In this document: one piece after another, positions 55,299 through 62,379 of the stretch
How the letters are laid out: every line of letters starts with the position of its first letter
Numbering within the stretch: position 1 is the first letter of the stretch
DNA from: a virus
Lineage: Duplodnaviria; Heunggongvirae; Uroviricota; Caudoviricetes
Virus record (IMG/VR): IMGVR_UViG_2778261035_000005
DNA: 64,000 nucleotides
Reading direction: 5' to 3' (one strand)
Program-made: the position numbers and the translations under genes
Notes under the pieces: generated by a model
What the model was told of the DNA's origin: nothing
What the model saw: the letters and a program-made list of their open reading frames with translations, nothing else
Databases searched by the model: none

Positions 55299-55474
55299 TG
55301 CTCGGCTGGATGATTGCATTTTTAGCAGTTGGTTTTTTCATCGGTATTGTGGTGATGTCCAGTTGCATTAATGACTACATTAAAAACGGTGTTATAGAAA
55401 GACGCGGTCGCATTTATCGCATTGTAGAAATAACCAACACCGTGAAGGAGATTAAGGATGATCGTATTAAGTAA
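55295..55474 (+). CDS. small single-TM protein (59 aa)
   Basis: ATG overlaps ligase stop; paralogous to 55670 ORF; below ORF-track size cut-off. Confidence 0.35.
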   Translation: MMLGWMIAFLAVGFFIGIVVMSSCINDYIKNGVIERRGRIYRIVEITNTVKEIKDDRIK

Positions 55475-55673
55475 ACGGGAGAAGGAAACACTTTATGAAA
55501 TCAGTAAGTGGCCGGAGTTCCCTGAGTACTGGAAGCCTAAAACGCGGGCTAAGTTAGAGCGGTTAGGGTTGGTTGCAAACGTTTCTGAAACGAGGGGGTC
55601 GGCCAACTACCAGTTAACTGATAAAGGGAAAGTATTGCTACAGCAATTAGTAGAATCAGGAGCGTTAAAATGA
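55458..55673 (+). CDS. small protein (71 aa)
   Basis: Good RBS aaggag before ATG 55458. Confidence 0.5.
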   Translation: MIVLSKREKETLYEISKWPEFPEYWKPKTRAKLERLGLVANVSETRGSANYQLTDKGKVLLQQLVESGALK

Positions 55674-55822
55674 TTCCATACATCTCATTAGCTTTTATGG
55701 GTGGCTTTCTTATCGGCTTCGGCATCTGTCGTGATTTAATTAAGCAGGAACTTAAAACCAAAACACTGTGCATCGGAAAGCGTGTGTATCGGGTAGTTCA
55801 TGAAACAAAGGTTAGAAAATGA
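55670..55822 (+). CDS. small single-TM protein (50 aa)
   Basis: MIPYISLAFMGGFLIGFGIC...; begins with the 13-bp repeat AATGATTCCATAC. Confidence 0.4.
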   Translation: MIPYISLAFMGGFLIGFGICRDLIKQELKTKTLCIGKRVYRVVHETKVRK

Positions 55823-56109
55823 GCAATTTAACTTCTTGGGACTGGTGGTTGGCCACCTATTTCTTAGCGGCCGGAGTCGCATTCGCCTTTTACGTAGGTC
55901 AGTTAGTCGTAAAACTGTTGCTGATTAAATTTGCTAGTCATAAACGTATCGATGATGGTCTGTGGCGTCTTGGCACCCTGGTGGAAACTCGCTACGGGCA
56001 ACTTAAGGAGAACGAAACCATTACTATCCAAGCGAAACGATTCACTGCCACCATCACAAGAACACCTAGTCGTAGAGTGGCCTTGATCAAAAAAGTCGCA
56101 ACCGAATAA
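55819..56109 (+). CDS. membrane protein (96 aa)
   Basis: ATGA overlap with previous ORF; N-terminal TM helix. Confidence 0.5.
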   Translation: MSNLTSWDWWLATYFLAAGVAFAFYVGQLVVKLLLIKFASHKRIDDGLWRLGTLVETRYGQLKENETITIQAKRFTATITRTPSRRVALIKKVATE

Positions 56110-56115
56110 AAACAC

Positions 56116-56140
56116 AATGATAAGTATTTACTTACTTATC
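56116..56140. promoter_or_regulatory. palindrome GATAAGTA-N6-TACTTATC
   Basis: gataagtatttacttacttatc. Confidence 0.45.
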
Positions 56141-56682
56141 TTTTATGTATAAGATGACTTTGTTTTCGTTGAGACGCGACTGTTTGAACTTAAATACAAG
56201 TGCAAACGAAGAAGTCTATCTGGCAGTAGCCTAATAAGCCAAACACCAGCGAGGTCAGTTTCCAGCCTCGTTACCGAAATGGGACACACTGAGCGAGTGT
56301 GATTGCAGAACGCAGGAGGGAACATGAATGTTCCCTCCGATGAAGTAACAGAATGGGCGGTCAGTATATTTTCAACTCATATACGACTCCCGGATTCTTA
56401 TCCAATGACCGCCCATCCTGTTACGTCATTTTGTTCAATTATGTCGTTTATACTGGGTTAAAAAGCGGCGACGTAGCCCGGCTGGTATGGTTAGCCAGCA
56501 CACAACGTTGAGGCCATTACATTTTTATCAATTCTAAGGTTCTATTCACAGAGATACCGGCGAGCGTTGATATGTAACATGTTGGGCAAACATTCAATCG
56601 GAGTAGTGGCCTCAACGTTGTGAAGACAGGATAGTTGTGTAGGTTTAACCACTGTTGCCATTGGTGCCTGTTTTCACAACAA

Positions 56683-56772
56683 ATGATTCCATACATCACA
56701 TTGTATAAATTACAAAGTAAGTGCAGTCCTCAGAAACATCATCTACTTAAAGATTTTGCCTTCTACTATTGA
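56683..56772 (+). pseudogene. truncated duplicate of the 5' end of the 55670 small-ORF
   Basis: AATGATTCCATAC repeated; frame closes after 29 codons. Confidence 0.3.
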
Positions 56773-56888
56773 GCGAAGTCGAAAGCGTCTGGCACTAACG
56801 AAAAGTGCAAGTAGCGGTGCGTTTCCTGGCAGAAACTAAACCGTCGCGATTGGCACTGTTGAGTAATAAATACTGGCAGTGCCGAATT

Positions 56889-56963
56889 GATGGTGTAGCT
56901 CAGCGGTAGAGCAGTTGGCTGTTAACCAACTGGTCGGTGGTTCGAATCCACCCACCATCGCCA
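56889..56963 (+). tRNA. tRNA-Asn (anticodon GTT)
   Basis: Cloverleaf read by hand: acceptor gatggtg/caccatc, anticodon loop ctGTTaa, T-loop ggtggttcgaatccacc, 3' CCA. Confidence 0.85.
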
Positions 56964-56965
56964 AT

Positions 56966-57041
56966 GCCGGTTTAGCTCAGTTGGTAGAGCACCTGCCTTG
57001 TAAGCAGGATGTCAGCGGTTCGAATCCGTTAACCGGCACCA
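56966..57041 (+). tRNA. tRNA-Thr (anticodon TGT)
   Basis: acceptor gccggtt/aaccggc, anticodon stem cctgc/gcagg, loop ctTGTaa, T-loop ttcgaat, 3' CCA. Confidence 0.85.
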
Positions 57042-57254
57042 ACACAACAGGAAAGAGCATTGAGAACCGCCGAGACTGCCCTGTTTGAAGCGTAAGTCCG
57101 TGCAAACGTCATACAGTGCTCTTTTCGTTGTGGTGAATGCGGCTAAGCGCACGCGGGGAAATGGTTATATTGATCCTTTGTGATGACTATTGGCTCCGTC
57201 CACGGTGGATAACCAGCCAAAGGACACCGGGAAGCACCCGGCACCACAACAATT

Positions 57255-57341
57255 GGAGAGTAGGGAGCATGGTGCTCAAGCGGTCTTGAAAACCGTCCCA
57301 TTGCGCAAGCGATGATGGTTCGATTCCATTACTCTCCGCCA
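57255..57341 (+). tRNA. tRNA-Ser-like (anticodon TGA, long variable arm), D-arm atypical
   Basis: acceptor ggagagt/actctcc, anticodon loop ctTGAaa, variable-arm hairpin cattgc-gcaa-gcgatg, T-loop ggttcgattcc, 3' CCA. Confidence 0.6.
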
Positions 57342-57496
57342 GACACAGCGTTGAGCGGTTTGGCCTTTTAATCACCCAGATTAAGACTCCGCTAACATAA
57401 ACCAGACCGCTCAACGCTGTGATAGACAATTACGGCAGACGTTCTTAACCATAGCTTGCTAACATCCTAGCAACACTTTTTTTCAGCGCAAAATTC

Positions 57497-57521
57497 AAAG
57501 GGGCTTCGGCCCCTTTTTGGC
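57497..57521. terminator. bidirectional rho-independent terminator
   Basis: aaaggggcttcggcccctttttgg. Confidence 0.75.
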
Positions 57522-57525
57522 TGGG

Positions 57526-58806
57526 TTAATTAAAACCGAATGAATCAAGTTCTGCTTTTAATTTATCGACCATTTTTTCAACTTCAACCACAATTTCGCC
57601 AATCACCTTTTCTTTGTGTTGATTAGAGCTAAGTTCAAAATAGGCGTTATATAACGCATAACGAGACAGAAAATTTCTAATCTCATTAGCGGGTCTAATG
57701 GTGTAGCCATCGGTTAACACGATATCGGTCTGTCTAGAGTGCTTCTCGTTGAGTTTTATTAGCCGCTTTATCTGTTTTTCATCCTTGAGCACTATCACTT
57801 TGTTAGCTGCAATTTCAAGCTCCCAGCCGACAAAATAACGCAGCGTAGAATTTAATTTAGCCACTTCCTCGGCTGCAATTTCCATTTTCAGCTCAATGTA
57901 GTTTCGCATATGCATAGGTAGGTCATTAAATCTTTGCAGCAAATGTTGTCGGCAGGGGTTGTTGTAAGACCAAAGAACTGCAAACGTAAGCCTATGATAA
58001 CAGCTTATCGCATTGGTATTACAGGCCGAATCACCAACAATCATGCGATCAACATAAAACTCTACGTCTTTTTGGTATTCTTTATTGAATATATCAGCGG
58101 CATAGGTGTCCAGGTAATGAACTTTAGATATTGCATCTTCAAAGAAAAGTTCATTTTCGAAGAAGTTGTATTTGTTCAGGAGACGATAAAGTTTCTTTGC
58201 GTCGTAGGTTTTGCTATTGTCGACATTAAGACCAAAAATAGCAATCAGCAGACTTACTTTTGGACTAATGCTGTTGCGCAGTTGTTCTATGTAAGATCTC
58301 TTTTCACTATCCGCAGATGACGGCAGATAGAAGTCTTTATCTACATAATTTAGAATTAAAATAATGTGGTTAACATACTTAATATAAACAGGGTTTTTTG
58401 TTGCATAGTAATAAACGCCCTTGACGACTTTTATATTCAATTTCAAATTGTACTGACTATCATCCAGTAAGGTTTTGTTAACATCCTCAAGTAATTTATT
58501 ATGCTGTTCAAGTAATATGCCGTACCATTCCTTAAAAGAAGATTTTTTCATTTCAAGAAGCGAAGCCGCCGTCAGCCTGGTCGCTCTCATTGCCGCCTTT
58601 GCACTATGCCTTGCCTCATAAGCGGCCCATGCTGTGGCTAAAAAGGCAAGTGAAGTAGCAAGCGTACCTATAACCTCTACGTTTTCCTTGACGGTATCCC
58701 AGAAAATAATCATCACTGTCCCAAGTATGAGGATTAACAAAACAGGCATTTTATCAGTGTCTTTGGTTAATTTTGAAACTGAATGATACCTAATCGACCA
58801 TACCAT
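57526..58806 (-). CDS. AT-rich gene: membrane-anchored protein (426 aa) of unknown function
   Basis: Two N-terminal TM helices then ~330-aa soluble domain; no motif recognised; composition visibly AT-rich. Confidence 0.6.
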   Translation of the reverse strand: MVWSIRYHSVSKLTKDTDKMPVLLILILGTVMIIFWDTVKENVEVIGTLATSLAFLATAWAAYEARHSAKAAMRATRLTAASLLEMKKSSFKEWYGILLEQHNKLLEDVNKTLLDDSQYNLKLNIKVVKGVYYYATKNPVYIKYVNHIILILNYVDKDFYLPSSADSEKRSYIEQLRNSISPKVSLLIAIFGLNVDNSKTYDAKKLYRLLNKYNFFENELFFEDAISKVHYLDTYAADIFNKEYQKDVEFYVDRMIVGDSACNTNAISCYHRLTFAVLWSYNNPCRQHLLQRFNDLPMHMRNYIELKMEIAAEEVAKLNSTLRYFVGWELEIAANKVIVLKDEKQIKRLIKLNEKHSRQTDIVLTDGYTIRPANEIRNFLSRYALYNAYFELSSNQHKEKVIGEIVVEVEKMVDKLKAELDSFGFN

Positions 58807-58955
58807 TTCAGCTAGTTTAAAGCTGTCTTGCCGGTTCTAGTGTGTCAACCTCACAAAGCCATTTCTGCTTAGTAACCAAACACATTAAATAGGTAATGAC
58901 TCACCTATTCATTTTAGCTATAGTCACGACACTTACTCACTTGAAAGGACTCTAT

Positions 58956-59081
58956 ATGGGAAACAAACGTAAACAGGCGCGTCGCGCAGCTCGTCAGGCA
59001 GTGAAGTCAAAGCCACGCATCCACGGCTACGAAATTGACACAATCATCGTTAATGAACAGCAGTTGCACGAGGTGAAGTGA
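58956..59081 (+). CDS. possible small basic protein
   Basis: ATG 58956 with RBS aaggac; ATGA overlap with glutaredoxin gene. Confidence 0.3.
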   Translation: MGNKRKQARRAARQAVKSKPRIHGYEIDTIIVNEQQLHEVK

Positions 59082-59326
59082 TGAAAGTCGTTATCTACGG
59101 ACGAGATAACTGCTCATACTGCAAACGTGCGGTCGAGCTGGCGAAGCAACTAAAGGGACATGGCTACGGTGATTATGAGTACATAAACATCACCACTGCC
59201 GGTATCGATAAGGAAAAACTTAGCGAAATTGTTGGTAAACCGGTAGAGACTATCCCCCAGGTGCTGATCGATGGCCAGCCGATTGGCGGATACACAGAGA
59301 TGGCATCTTTCGTAAGTTTCTTATAA
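59078..59326 (+). CDS. glutaredoxin-like protein
   Basis: CxxC active site (YGRDNCSYCKRA) and thioredoxin-fold size (82 aa). Confidence 0.75.
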   Translation: MMKVVIYGRDNCSYCKRAVELAKQLKGHGYGDYEYINITTAGIDKEKLSEIVGKPVETIPQVLIDGQPIGGYTEMASFVSFL

Positions 59327-59364
59327 GTAAAAGCCACATCTTTGTACATATAGTACATATAACA

Positions 59365-59388
59365 AAAAAGGCCCATATGGGCCTTTTT
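59365..59388. terminator. bidirectional terminator
   Basis: aaaaaggcccatatgggccttttt. Confidence 0.75.
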
Positions 59389-59510
59389 CATAACTTCTAG
59401 CTAACCACTACAGTGGCTTAAAGACCACTTCACCCTTGCGTTCAGCTTCAGCTTTAGCAGTCATGAATCGTTTGATCATTTCGACTTTGCTAGCATGGAT
59501 AGTTTTAAAA

Positions 59511-60065
59511 TCAATCTTCCCTTTGTTTTGGGTAGTGTTGTGTTCGTATCGCATAGGAAGCTCCGTCATTTAAATAAGTTAGGCCACGCTCTTGTGTAAA
59601 TCTCTTCACATATCTCTTGTATGTGGCCATCAGTTCTTCGCGTTCTGCCGCAAAGAATAAAATCTGTATGCCTTCATTGTCGGCAACTTTGAGCATTAAG
59701 TCAACTAAAGTACCGTAAAGGTATTGAAGTTCACCTAAAGTAAGATTAAAAGACCCTTCGGGTTTGGCAAATACGTTAATTGGCTCTTCCGCTCCAAGAG
59801 CGACATTCTGGAGCTGTTCTTGCTGCCTGTCAAGTTGAATCATGTCCACAAAACTAACGACAGATACACACAACCCATAAACATCAGCACCTAACATATT
59901 ATGCATAGTTTCTGCGGCAACAGGATCTAAAGAAGGAGGGCAAAAGACTAAACGGTATCTAGCCTTACGAGCTTCATTGCCAGAGAAAACAAAGTCTATA
60001 TCTAAATATGACAGATCACCCGGCAATGAAGCCAAACCAGGTGTAACCAACTTATGCAAGTGCAT
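59511..60065 (-). CDS. hypothetical protein (184 aa)
   Basis: ORF. Confidence 0.45.
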   Translation of the reverse strand: MHLHKLVTPGLASLPGDLSYLDIDFVFSGNEARKARYRLVFCPPSLDPVAAETMHNMLGADVYGLCVSVVSFVDMIQLDRQQEQLQNVALGAEEPINVFAKPEGSFNLTLGELQYLYGTLVDLMLKVADNEGIQILFFAAEREELMATYKRYVKRFTQERGLTYLNDGASYAIRTQHYPKQRED

Positions 60066-60201
60066 CTGTCTCGAATCCCTCTTTATTAGTATAAGTTGTC
60101 TTATTGTACCCTACCAAACGTTTATATGCATTGTTATGTATTATTTTGATTTTCAATATTACCTCCTAGAACGAAGGGTAGATTTCAAAAAACGCACCCT
60201 C

Positions 60202-60234
60202 AATGATTCCATACCTACTATGTATGGAATCATT
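60202..60234. repeat. inverted repeat AATGATTCCATA-N9-TATGGAATCATT upstream of integrase (candidate recombination site)
   Basis: 12-bp perfect arms; left arm is third copy of AATGATTCCATAC (also at 55669 and 56682). Confidence 0.5.
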
Positions 60235-60332
60235 ACTGAAAATGAGTTACTTTTACTCTTGATCCTATAAGAATCTATGCCTAATATACTGTTTACTTAT
60301 ACAGTGCATCGGCGTAACTCGGTGATTGTCAT

Positions 60333-61436
60333 ATGAAAAATAGCTTTGACAGAGCACGCGCTGCGGAGAACACCTCAAAAGAGGCGATTGAGTATCTCGA
60401 AAGAGCATCTCAAATGCAGGCCGTTATGATCTCCCAGGTCAGCAATGACATGAGATTCTCGGACGCATTCATGTTATTCACTCGCTTATCTCTGCTGATA
60501 ACAAGACGTCGGCCAGAGATCGCTGTTCATTGTATTTTGATACATGTTTTGCCGCACATTGCCGATGTAAAAGTAAGTGATATTAATAGGTTCATGGTGA
60601 ACCAACTGGTCAACCCACTAATACTGGATGGCAAAATTGTTATGGGTCGCCGCGTTTTCTCTCTGATGAAGCAGTTCCTCAGCTGGTGCGCCTTCCAGGG
60701 GATGATCGACGTGTCACCGTTAAACGATATGTCACTTAACAAAGTTGCCGGTGGCGCAAAGCCCACACCTCGCGAGCGGAAGCTAACCGACGCAGAGGTA
60801 TGGGTGTTCTGGAATATATGGGACTACTTCAATGTGTGTGCTGGTACAAAATGGGCGGCCAGGCTATGTCTTGTATCCGCAAGACGACCTGACGAAGTAC
60901 TGCGGGCTAAAAAAAGTGAGTTCAACCTCCAGCGTGGGGTTTGGAATCAAGGCAAGAGAAACAAATCAGCCCGTGAGCATTCTCTGCCTTTAAGCACATT
61001 AATGCGCACATGCATTGAAGAGTTATTCGAATATGGTAAAGGCAGCCAGTGGCTTGTGCCTTCGAATAAAAAAATCGGGAAAGATCTTCCGATGTCTAAA
61101 GTGGCAATAGCCCAGGCATTACGCCGTATCCTGGAACGACCAGAACTGATGGAGCTTGAGCCATTTACACCACGAGATTTGCGTCGTACTGCGCGTAGTT
61201 ACTTCCCAGCATTAGGCATAAGCCAGGAGGTATCACGTAAAATCATGAACCACAGTCTTGAGGGGATAGATCGGGTCTACGACCGGCACGATTATATGGA
61301 CGAGATGCGAGACGCCTTAGAAAGTTTCTCGACGTACATCGCATCAATCGTAGAGCAACCGGATTTAGACGAAATTGACCACAAATTCAAGGGAGATCGT
61401 CTATCGACAGAGCTTATTCGTGTAAATTTTTCATAG
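60333..61436 (+). CDS. tyrosine integrase / site-specific recombinase
   Basis: C-terminal catalytic motifs ...PRDLRRTARS... and NHSLEGIDRVYDRHDY (H-x-x-R ... Y). Confidence 0.75.
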   Translation: MKNSFDRARAAENTSKEAIEYLERASQMQAVMISQVSNDMRFSDAFMLFTRLSLLITRRRPEIAVHCILIHVLPHIADVKVSDINRFMVNQLVNPLILDGKIVMGRRVFSLMKQFLSWCAFQGMIDVSPLNDMSLNKVAGGAKPTPRERKLTDAEVWVFWNIWDYFNVCAGTKWAARLCLVSARRPDEVLRAKKSEFNLQRGVWNQGKRNKSAREHSLPLSTLMRTCIEELFEYGKGSQWLVPSNKKIGKDLPMSKVAIAQALRRILERPELMELEPFTPRDLRRTARSYFPALGISQEVSRKIMNHSLEGIDRVYDRHDYMDEMRDALESFSTYIASIVEQPDLDEIDHKFKGDRLSTELIRVNFS

Positions 61437-61817
61437 AGACTTTATGGCCTCAACAACCTTTTGTGATGCGCCTTTCTCTTTACCGAATCGCTCGTTATAT
61501 GCAGCAAGAACCTGTTTTTCGTCCTCGTTAAGAGGAGCAGTGCCTTCTTTGTATAAAAATGCTGCGAGTTCGGGTTGGCGTTCTTCCAGCACCATCATCA
61601 TAAGACGACTTGGCTCAATACCCAGTGCCAGCGCCAGCGGACGAACCTTATCGATAGGCAAAGGAATTTTGCCGCTTTTAATTAAAGAAAGGTTGTTGGC
61701 GTTTTTATACCCAATTGTTTTGGCTATCTGGGCCTGGCTCATAGGTGAGGATTCAATCAACCCTGCGATAAAAGCAGCGTAGCGACTTTCTATAAATTCA
61801 ATCTTGTTGTCAGACAT
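61431..61817 (-). CDS. XRE-family HTH repressor (CI/Cro-like)
   Basis: HTH MSQAQIAKTIGYKNANNLSLIKSGK; divergent from downstream rightward genes. Confidence 0.7.
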   Translation of the reverse strand: MSDNKIEFIESRYAAFIAGLIESSPMSQAQIAKTIGYKNANNLSLIKSGKIPLPIDKVRPLALALGIEPSRLMMMVLEERQPELAAFLYKEGTAPLNEDEKQVLAAYNERFGKEKGASQKVVEAIKSL

Positions 61818-62068
61818 TGTTACAACCTTTGCGCGTTCAATTCTCTCTGGTAAGTGCTTACCGATATTACATCAAAGGTTAGGGTTGTAAAGCTATTATC
61901 ATTTTTTTCGGCAGGCACTTTAAAGACCGGACAAAGACCAATGCATGGTGAAAAACTAGCCCCAAATAGGTAAGAAAATTAACTTGCATCTAATATGGAT
62001 GTATTCAGTATTGATATAAATTTTAGTAGTATTCCTTACAATAGTATAAGTAAGAATGGATTGATTGA

Positions 62069-62281
62069 ATGAACACCACTATTTCCAGCCTAATAGCTCT
62101 TGAGATCGGACACGTACAAAAATTAGCTGATGAGTGTGTAGCTGACATCCTCACCGAGCTACCGAATGAGCAGATTGAGGTTGGTGTGAATGACACAACT
62201 GGCTTTATATTCGAACTTAACAACAAACGCTTCACGCTTATCAATACCGGCTCCGGGTCTTTAGCCGTCAGAACCTGTTAA
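62069..62281 (+). CDS. small protein (70 aa), Cro-position
   Basis: ORF divergent from repressor. Confidence 0.35.
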   Translation: MNTTISSLIALEIGHVQKLADECVADILTELPNEQIEVGVNDTTGFIFELNNKRFTLINTGSGSLAVRTC

Positions 62282-62379
62282 TCCCTCTTCTACCTGCGCG
62301 AATGGCTTAGTTCCCTGTTCGCGCAGTGCTACATTAAACACACTAGTAAATAATTTGTTTTCATAACAAAGGATTAGCC

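Follow-up and report, generated by a model that had tools for sequence, protein, structure and literature searches.

The question raised by the locus described here is why one short sequence recurs, unchanged, in the neighborhood of an integrase gene, and whether the integrase acts on it. The locus lies in a 64,000-nucleotide (nt) stretch of viral DNA (Caudoviricetes; IMG/VR record IMGVR_UViG_2778261035_000005), which is referred to as the window hereafter. A first-pass annotation had pointed out three identical copies of a 13-mer, one of them within a palindrome just upstream of the integrase gene, and had proposed that they mark an integrase-mobilised cassette or attachment cores. The answer reached here separates these two proposals. 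The palindrome is, on the comparative evidence, most likely the cognate crossover (core recombination) site of the adjacent integrase. Taken jointly with a probable function in multimer resolution and with the two remaining copies as probable extra binding sites, this reading is given a rough probability of 0.55. The cassette interpretation was not supported by the data examined.

The region is 100% identical to the Escherichia coli plasmid pWP4-S18-ESBL-07_2 (NZ_AP022089.1, 110 kb). A close relative is pLF82/phage Cyrano, and more distant ones are the Salmonella phage SSU5, pHCM2 of S. Typhi, the Klebsiella pKpn-type plasmids, and pMT1 of Yersinia pestis. The window is thus an E. coli phage-plasmid of the SSU5/pHCM2/pLF82 type, belonging to the SSU5 supergroup.

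An exact search of the window for AATGATTCCATAC returned four matches (Table 1): the three plus-strand copies already noticed, of which the first two are called copy 1 and copy 2 hereafter, and a fourth on the minus strand. Four copies stand against 0.14 expected even when one mismatch is allowed, and none of 100 shuffled sequences reached this number; the repeat is real and far from chance, as had been supposed. The third and fourth copies are the arms of a perfect 13-7-13 palindrome, AATGATTCCATAC-CTACTAT-GTATGGAATCATT (33 bp, 60202–60234). The inversion had rightly been called perfect, but the arms are 13 rather than 12 bp long and enclose an asymmetric 7-bp spacer. The palindrome ends 98 bp 5′ of the integrase ATG at 60333, close to the 100 bp first estimated. 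The descriptions of the other two copies also held. Copy 1 forms the ATGA overlap between the stop codon of a 71-amino-acid (aa) open reading frame (ORF; 55458–55673) and the start codon of a 50-aa membrane ORF (55670–55822). Copy 2 had been regarded as a duplicate of this ORF start, which is fair at the sequence level: 21 of 22 nt are common to 55668–55689 and 56681–56702. When the exact-match search was extended to the whole plasmid, one further copy was found outside the window, in reverse complement within the coding sequence of dnaE (locus L010, 2356). This exact reverse-complement 12/13-mer (L010:2356–2367; plasmid record position 62355) encodes Cys-Met-Glu-Ser-Leu and is kept in the E. 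coli, pEc1675, SSU5, and Serratia elements; coincidence within the coding sequence is the probable explanation.

The evidence that carries the main finding is the linkage between the palindrome and the integrase gene. A palindrome of the 12/13-7-12/13 form lies about 15–140 bp upstream of every integrase homologue that was fetched (44–100% identity, about 15 genera). The hosts are E. coli, Klebsiella (including K. michiganensis and K. variicola), Salmonella, Yersinia, Citrobacter, Enterobacter, Kluyvera, Buttiauxella, Chimaeribacter, Nissabacter, Serratia, Providencia, Xenorhabdus, Photorhabdus, and Erwinia. The site diverges together with the enzyme. The arm core is TGATTCCATAC in 80 of 80 IMG/VR loci and in all SSU5-type plasmids fetched, while TGACTCCAGAC occurs in distant lineages; an ATG-to-GTG variant exists in addition to these two main versions, and the changes are mirrored on both sides. 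The 12-mer ATGATTCCATAC is constant in both arms in every relative, whereas the flanks are 70–78% identical and the spacer differs. Alignment of the integrase against IMG/VR gave relatives at 82–100% identity only, and no new distant lineages came from that source. The converse search gave the same picture: a scan of 185,579 species, one genome each, yielded eight matches to the exact arms, and seven of them directly adjoin an integrase homologue. The remaining match, from a Planctomycetota metagenome-assembled genome (2.2-kb contig, L029:316–347), consists of two 12-bp arms separated by an 8-nt gap, with no integrase homologue beside it. By our own arithmetic about 0.01 such matches are expected by chance, and it may be contamination or an unrelated dyad.

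The two arms vary in concert. Among 23 distinct site sequences, 97% of the arm cells are complementary, and four pairs are altered on both sides. The co-variation score was 0.164 as compared with 0.062 in shuffled alignments, none of 500 shuffles scoring as high, and controls slid along the alignment paired at only 26–40%. In contrast to the arms, the spacer is constant in length and variable in sequence: seven variants occur in the 80 IMG/VR loci, in which the arms are invariant, and more in distant lineages, all of them 7 bp long, and the spacer is non-palindromic in 23 of 23 distinct sites. It is found in both orientations relative to the integrase gene. Flips are seen between collinear plasmids, such as TTGTAAG versus CTTACAG (L017:10215 and L019:6014) and CTATTAA versus TTAATAG (L013 and L022), and may have arisen via hairpin-mediated inversion or antiparallel synapsis. 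The spacer CTATTAA is common to elements of Salmonella, Yersinia, Enterobacter, Buttiauxella, and Erwinia. The locus therefore contains what a tyrosine-recombinase core site consists of: two inverted elements within the 11–14 bp range, an asymmetric spacer within the 6–8 bp range, and a linked recombinase gene with which the site co-diverges. The size of 33 bp and the 13-bp arms fit such a core site better than a helix-turn-helix (HTH) operator. Linkage to the gene throughout the lineages examined, together with symmetric co-variation of the arms, is the basis for reading the palindrome as the core site of the integrase.

The protein is suited to such a site. Its catalytic domain passes the curated threshold of PF00589 (39.5 bits versus a cut-off of 27.1; residues 172–320), and its central core-binding domain is weakly matched by PF22022. 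In the alignment of 31 homologues (24–87% identity), no substitution occurs at R185, K211, R284, or Y316 (nor at Y321), and R281 and H307 are almost invariant. The R...K...HxxR...H/W...Y residues of tyrosine recombinases are thus present, with an Arg in place of the first His of the HxxR motif. Although the sequence alone detected no chain in the PDB, the AlphaFold 2 (AF2) model (predicted local distance difference test score, pLDDT, 85.8) shows the two-domain fold of core-binding plus catalytic domains, and Foldseek related it to lambda Int (1z1b, E = 2e-7), Tn1549 Int (3e-7), Xer (5e-6), and, more remotely, Cre (about 2e-2). The arm-binding domain PF13356 was not matched in the integrase, whose residues 1–40 are helical, while relatives at 26–34% identity carry this domain; a partial match to NF007246 points to distant kinship with P4-type integrases. 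The ancestry thus appears to be nearer to the lambda/P4-type integrases, with the arm-binding domain lost. The fold and the catalytic residues, in the absence of this domain, indicate a "simple" recombinase that would act on a short core site without arm-type sites. As for a further site, the internal GTATGGAATCAA in the integrase gene was considered and rejected: it represents codons of the conserved VWNQG motif and is absent from the window.

The name "integrase" suggests another use of the palindrome, namely as a phage attachment site (attP) for occasional chromosomal integration rather than for resolution. The distant P4-type kinship (the partial NF007246 match and the relatives with PF13356), the lambda-Int-like fold combined with a 7-bp spacer, and the position of copy 2 beside tRNA genes, which are classical targets of P4-type integrases, would all suit this use. 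The distribution of the module argues otherwise. Among 5,426 complete E. coli genomes, 252 carry it, at 255 places on plasmids and at none on a chromosome; no chromosomally integrated copy was found in this set, and other genera were looked at without a systematic survey. For a homologue listed on an 897-kb contig, only plasmid-sized places were returned. The palindrome is intact in every locus seen, the arm-binding domain is missing, and no Xis-like partner is conserved. The same module is also present on non-phage elements: on a 33.8-kb Photorhabdus plasmid it lies beside the genes for ParA and Rep (Rep3), and on large Erwinia and Chimaeribacter contigs it lies among non-phage (metabolic) genes. 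Surveys of phage-plasmids likewise report chromosomal remnants only rarely and do not ascribe them to integrases (PMC12977533). We therefore regard the attP alternative as unlikely, while occasional chromosomal integration in other hosts is possible.

Multimer resolution is, by analogy, the best-supported function. The prophage is a low-copy plasmid and does not integrate; resolution is therefore its recombinase's most likely job. One monomer would bind each 13-bp arm, two sites would synapse as a tetramer, and strand exchange would take place within the asymmetric spacer, as it does at loxP, dif, and the lambda core, so that plasmid multimers would be resolved to monomers. A possible second role would be the circularisation or re-assortment of incoming genomes, as with Cre/loxP for P1. 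The architecture, the gene linkage, the arm co-variation, the fold with its catalytic residues, and the plasmid-only distribution are observed here; binding, the points of cleavage, the resolution of multimers, and whatever part copies 1 and 2 play are inferred. Tyrosine recombinases have been described as persistent genes in the SSU5 supergroup, and dimer resolution as an expected need of phage-plasmids (PMC7969092). The integrase is the only site-specific recombinase annotated on the 110-kb plasmid. Phage SSU5 lacks the segment corresponding to 56965–62282 (from the end of tRNA-Asn to just before cobT; L009:10949–11013), and with it the cargo, the palindrome, the integrase, and the HTH "repressor". 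SSU5 has been handled as a lytic phage; in that case, the module would benefit the plasmid state, and lytic growth would not need it.

Several points weigh against this reading. Symmetric co-variation is equally expected from any dimeric binder or from a DNA or RNA hairpin. An autoregulatory operator might also be expected at the position of the palindrome, which lies 5′ of what appears to be the integrase promoter. Nothing like copies 1 and 2 is known from Cre/lox-type systems, and both copies are retained in SSU5 even though the integrase is missing there. The PLSDB annotation is incomplete, and a further recombinase on the plasmid could be missed. The resolution function itself is drawn from context, and host XerCD could do the same job. 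Finally, the literature search found no paper describing the palindrome as a site; the exact 12-mer appeared there only in unrelated primers. Two alternatives are considered next, and the feature coordinates are collected in Table 1.

Table 1 Features of the locus (positions refer to the window)
Feature	Position	Strand	Evidence or remark
Copy 1, isolated half-site in left-arm orientation	55669..55681	+	includes the 71-aa ORF stop and the 50-aa ORF start codon
Copy 2, isolated half-site at the 3′ edge of the structured noncoding block, about 195 bp before tRNA-Asn	56682..56694	+	invariant 14-mer
Variable cargo slot, from the end of tRNA-Asn to the palindrome module	56965..60183		homology breakpoints versus eight relatives
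A-tract motif AGATTTCAAAAAA, possible accessory or bending element	60180..60192	+	about 10 bp left of the palindrome
Palindrome left arm, putative recombinase-binding element	60202..60214	+	exact 13-mer; core TGATTCCATAC or, in distant lineages, TGACTCCAGAC
Asymmetric 7-bp spacer CTACTAT, putative crossover region	60215..60221	+	length constant, sequence variable
Palindrome right arm	60222..60234	-	exact reverse complement of the left arm; co-varies symmetrically
Tyrosine recombinase ("integrase"), 367 aa	60333..61436	+	PF00589, AF2 fold, catalytic residues
HTH regulator, "putative repressor", CYRAN_45 homologue	61431..61817	-	weak PF12844 match; annotated in Cyrano; probably not the palindrome binder

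The first alternative is that the palindrome and the half-sites are operators of a transcription factor other than the integrase, for example the HTH "repressor" or the 71-aa winged-helix protein, which would control the integrase, the cargo, and the small ORFs. The palindrome is a perfect dyad whose neighboring genes are divergent or in tandem, and it precedes the integrase promoter region, in which a weak promoter, TTGATC-17-TAATAT (60259–60287), is recognizable by inspection only, below the threshold of the prediction tool. Moreover, the HTH gene adjoins the integrase in most lineages, and copy 1 overlaps the end of the 71-aa ORF. However, the co-occurrence fails for both candidates. The integrase and palindrome are present without a detectable HTH homologue in Erwinia (L038) and Chimaeribacter (L023, L025, and L028), and the 71-aa ORF is missing from the K. 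variicola lineage (L035), in which all three sites are still there. The HTH gene has no copy in its own promoter either: the divergent promoter region 61818–62068 is free of the 13-mer and contains a different dyad, TTACAACC.../...GGTTGTAA. In addition, 13-bp arms are long for an HTH half-site. Both proteins were thus rejected as the binder on co-occurrence, and control by such a factor is distinctly unlikely. On these results, the palindrome follows the integrase.

The second alternative places the function at the RNA level: the palindrome would be a terminator or processing hairpin, and copies 1 and 2 would be identical translation-start motifs (AUGAUUCCAUACAUC, "MIPYI"), copy 2 opening a mini-ORF of 5–7 codons or mimicking copy 1. 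The hairpin is stable (−11 kcal/mol as DNA; z-score, z = −7.4), and the arm co-variation suits base pairing. In several lineages copy 2 opens the short ORF MIPYI(Q/T/S) followed by a stop, the ATG-to-GTG change leaves a start codon, and copy 2 borders, on the 3′ side, a conserved block with strong structure. On the other hand, no U-tract abuts the stem on either strand, the minus-strand T-run beginning only 9 nt past it, so that the hairpin does not have the form of an intrinsic terminator; neither the palindrome nor copy 2 was called in the promoter and terminator scan. Copy 2 is not preceded by a Shine-Dalgarno sequence, and Rfam gave no match. The constant length and the flipping orientation of the spacer are neutral for a protein site and are not specifically expected of a loop. 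An RNA-level function is accordingly considered highly improbable, and the integrase core site is the reading retained for the palindrome.

The half-sites require an explanation of their own. Copies 1 and 2 are single arms in the left-arm orientation, each followed by ATC, and no conserved right arm accompanies either; being single half-sites, they cannot support strand exchange alone. Their mutual distance is 914–1,024 bp in all relatives, the interval containing two small membrane ORFs and the noncoding block of about 580 nt. Both are kept with a precision that their surroundings do not share. The core of copy 1, ATGATTCCATACATC, is unchanged in about 10 diverged lineages, four synonymous positions included, while the following codons vary. 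The 14-mer of copy 2, TGATTCCATACATC, is invariant even where the flanks are unrelated (L030, L031, L035, L036, and L039). Two departures from this constancy were seen. In the K. variicola/K. michiganensis lineage, copy 2 reads GTGATTCC, an A-to-G change shared with both palindrome arms, while copy 1 keeps its ATG. Among 77 pairs of copies 1 and 2, a substitution in the core of copy 2 was found only in SSU5 (TGATTCCGTAC), the sole element without the integrase. With one event of co-variation and one of loss, the data suggest that whatever factor recognizes the arms may also recognize copy 2 and perhaps copy 1. In that case, the two copies would be additional binding sites of the integrase with a regulatory or architectural role; this is probable, though weakly so. 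Half-sites do not always accompany the integrase module, since in the lineages with TGACTCCAGAC arms none lies within 10 kb of the integrase; the ligase-noncoding-tRNA block of that position is also absent there.

The left flank of copy 2 (56669–56688) also shows an 18/20 match, TGTTTTCA[C/T]AACAAA[T/G]GATT, to 62356–62375, just 5′ of the cobT start. Four matches of the TGTTTTCA type, two of them exact copies, were found with up to two mismatches, as compared with 1.75 expected, which is not significant.

We now turn to the segment between copy 2 and the palindrome, which had been taken for a possible mobilised cassette. As a description of a hypervariable cargo region, this was correct. The interval measures 1.2–7.1 kb, and 39 different 25-nt left flanks of the palindrome are met by an invariant right flank. 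In the window, the slot contains tRNA-Thr, tRNA-Ser, a 426-aa AbiC-like gene, grx, and a 184-aa homologue of CYRAN_43. The content is lineage-specific and elsewhere includes AbiGi, PhoH, Gp49, a YafO toxin-antitoxin, colicin immunity, the Acb2/Tad1/Tad2 anti-defence genes, and, in pMT1, the caf1 operon. For mobilisation between the repeats, with attL/attR-type cores formed either by copy 2 plus the left arm of the palindrome or by copies 1 and 2, it can be said that the repeats are direct and share an exact 13-mer, that the interval is the cargo hotspot of the family, and that copy 2 has the A-to-G change of the arms in one Klebsiella lineage. Half-sites that are all distal to the integrase gene, combined with a full site proximal to it, are also the expected outcome of repeated circle insertion.

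The details at the boundaries are nevertheless difficult to reconcile with such movement. The 7 bp past the shared arm are ATCACAT at copy 2 and CTACTAT at the palindrome (3 of 7 identical); therefore, the identical crossover region needed by tyrosine recombinases is absent. Next to the integrase the palindrome is complete, in contrast to a hybrid att site, and copy 2 lacks a conserved right arm. Deletion junctions joining copy 2 to the palindrome, or copy 1 to copy 2, were found in 0 of about 190 close plasmids; in this search with chimeric queries, a coverage of at least 80% was required, which no record reached for either junction. The comparison of related elements for presence or absence of the segment, which had been proposed as a check, placed the breakpoints at 56965, 57061, 57233–57527, 59304, and 60184; they fall at tRNA genes, at grx, and about 18 bp left of the palindrome, with none at copy 2. 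The endpoints of the SSU5 deletion likewise coincide with no repeat, and the chromosomal copies expected of an integrating element were absent from the E. coli set. Neither the insertion of the 184-aa gene nor the caf1 island of pMT1 has a half-site scar at its far end, and copy 2 is conserved as a discrete site, without scar-like decay. It is thus very unlikely that the integrase moves a cassette between the repeats. Of the attachment-core idea, the part that stands is that the palindrome behaves as the core site of the integrase, and the part that falls is a cassette moved between the copies. The pattern across relatives suggests that the cargo differences are ordinary mosaic replacement beside the module, of which the palindrome would be the leftmost indispensable element.

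A variant of the cassette idea is an integron-like capture platform, in which circles with one good arm would insert at the integrase-proximal site and the recombinase would still use the half-sites. Each insertion would restore a perfect palindrome beside the integrase and leave a half-site at the far end. If true, this would explain both the location of the cargo (defence and anti-defence genes, toxin-antitoxin genes, and caf1 of pMT1) and the retention of the half-sites. No further half-site was found between the cargo genes at 56.7–60.2 kb with up to two mismatches, so that an integron-like array is not seen there, and the insertion ends just mentioned bear no scar. We give very little credence to this variant, and the core-site reading, with mosaic replacement of the cargo, is preferred.

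Several observations on the cargo slot are recorded here. It is rich in defence and counter-defence genes: the 426-aa gene (57526–58806, minus strand) has a weak AbiC match, and the slots of L004, L018, L031, L035, L036, and L039 contain AbiGi, Acb2/Tad1-hairpin, Tad2-like, YafO toxin, and colicin immunity genes. The 184-aa gene directly left of the palindrome (59511–60065, minus strand) is absent from many sister plasmids; its homologue CYRAN_43 has been reported at 723-fold over the local background in RNA-seq of the LF82 lysogen. In pMT1 (L015:8507–14275), the F1 capsule operon caf1R-caf1M-caf1A-caf1 fills the same slot. The left junction of this island lies inside the noncoding block, just past a long hairpin, with copy 2 deleted, and its right junction abuts the outer edge of the palindrome. 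The A-tract motif to the left of the palindrome is loosely kept (AGAWTT..AAA) in most lineages, but is not found in pMT1 or the pEc1675-type plasmids, in which the cargo directly abuts the palindrome arm.

The noncoding block (56125–56700), whose 3′ edge is copy 2, lies just 5′ of the tRNA cluster and is 77–81% conserved across the SSU5-type plasmids of E. coli, Klebsiella, Salmonella, Citrobacter, Enterobacter, and Yersinia. Folding is strong on both strands (z = −6.4 for plus and −5.1 for minus), and the consensus structure has 133 pairs, 18 of them with compensatory changes, and many invariant G-U pairs on the plus strand. Rfam contains no family for the block and nothing at copy 2 or the palindrome at its gathering or E-value thresholds. 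The block may be a large structured RNA or an origin-like region. A near-threshold match to the STnc100 small RNA family (44.1 bits versus the gathering score of 47) is located at 57109–57277 on the plus strand, between tRNA-Thr and tRNA-Ser. Two long hairpins with related arm starts, CACAACGTTGAGG... and CACAGCGTTGAGC..., occupy 56501–56622, inside the block, and 57344–57421, directly after tRNA-Ser.

The significance of these results lies in the family concerned. Phage-plasmids of the SSU5/pHCM2/pMT1 type are common in E. coli, Klebsiella, Salmonella Typhi, and Y. pestis, and are described as having no functional integrases, yet all, phage SSU5 apart, carry the conserved "integrase". With a 33-bp target and a plausible role in maintenance, the gene becomes accessible to testing, and a handle is gained to cure or destabilise these plasmids. 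The pair may also be a new recombinase tool, that is, a simple enzyme plus site whose lineage is not related to that of Cre and which offers two arm specificities and many spacers of natural origin. Furthermore, the palindrome is the fixed edge of a cargo hotspot that contains defence genes and, in pMT1, the F1 capsule operon, and it is therefore a landmark for comparisons of cargo exchange.

The proposed system can finally be compared with those already known. It resembles the integron IntI/attI system in that variable cargo lies directly beside the recombinase site, but no attC-like sites occur between the cargo genes, and the change of cargo looks like mosaic replacement. In the TnpI/IRS systems of Tn4430 and Tn5401, the binding motif occurs as an inverted-repeat core together with single accessory or regulatory copies, which in Tn5401 are also found far off, at the transposon ends. 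The accessory repeats of TnpI adjoin the core (within about 116 bp) or lie in the transposon ends, whereas of the half-sites described here one falls in the start of a gene and the other borders a noncoding block, at a greater distance. ResD/rfsF of F, a plasmid-borne resolution recombinase with its site, is comparable in the proposed function. The Xer systems (Xer/dif-cer, XerH/difH, and XerA) share the proposed resolution of multimers at a short dyad, and Xer is among the fold matches; however, the present site is unrelated to dif, the enzyme is plasmid-encoded, and no accessory-sequence architecture was recognised. The lambda/P4-type heterobivalent integrases give the best fold match for the core-binding and catalytic domains, have a 7-bp overlap (lambda) equal in length to the spacer, and include the relatives at 26–34% identity. 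They differ from the present enzyme and site, which have no arm-binding domain, a perfectly palindromic core, and no known integrated copies, and whose extra copies, unlike arm-type sites, are identical to the core arms and kilobases away.

Cre/loxP of P1 and the Cre-type pairs Dre/rox, Vika/vox, and the YR series share more with it. In them, too, a lone tyrosine recombinase is encoded beside its site on a plasmid prophage, the site consists of two perfect 13-bp inverted arms around a short asymmetric spacer, and multimer resolution is the expected function. The differences are the 7-bp spacer in place of 8 bp, the two extra conserved half-sites 3.5 and 4.5 kb away, and the protein itself, which is not Cre-like and branches from the P4-type integrases. 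The site was also recognised by the same reasoning that found the Cre-type pairs, a palindrome near a recombinase gene: loxP has the 13-8-13 form, and palindromes predicted beside tyrosine-recombinase genes were active in 8 of 17 tests (PMC10250229). By architecture and context, Cre/loxP and the Cre-type pairs are the closest analogue of the integrase and its palindrome.

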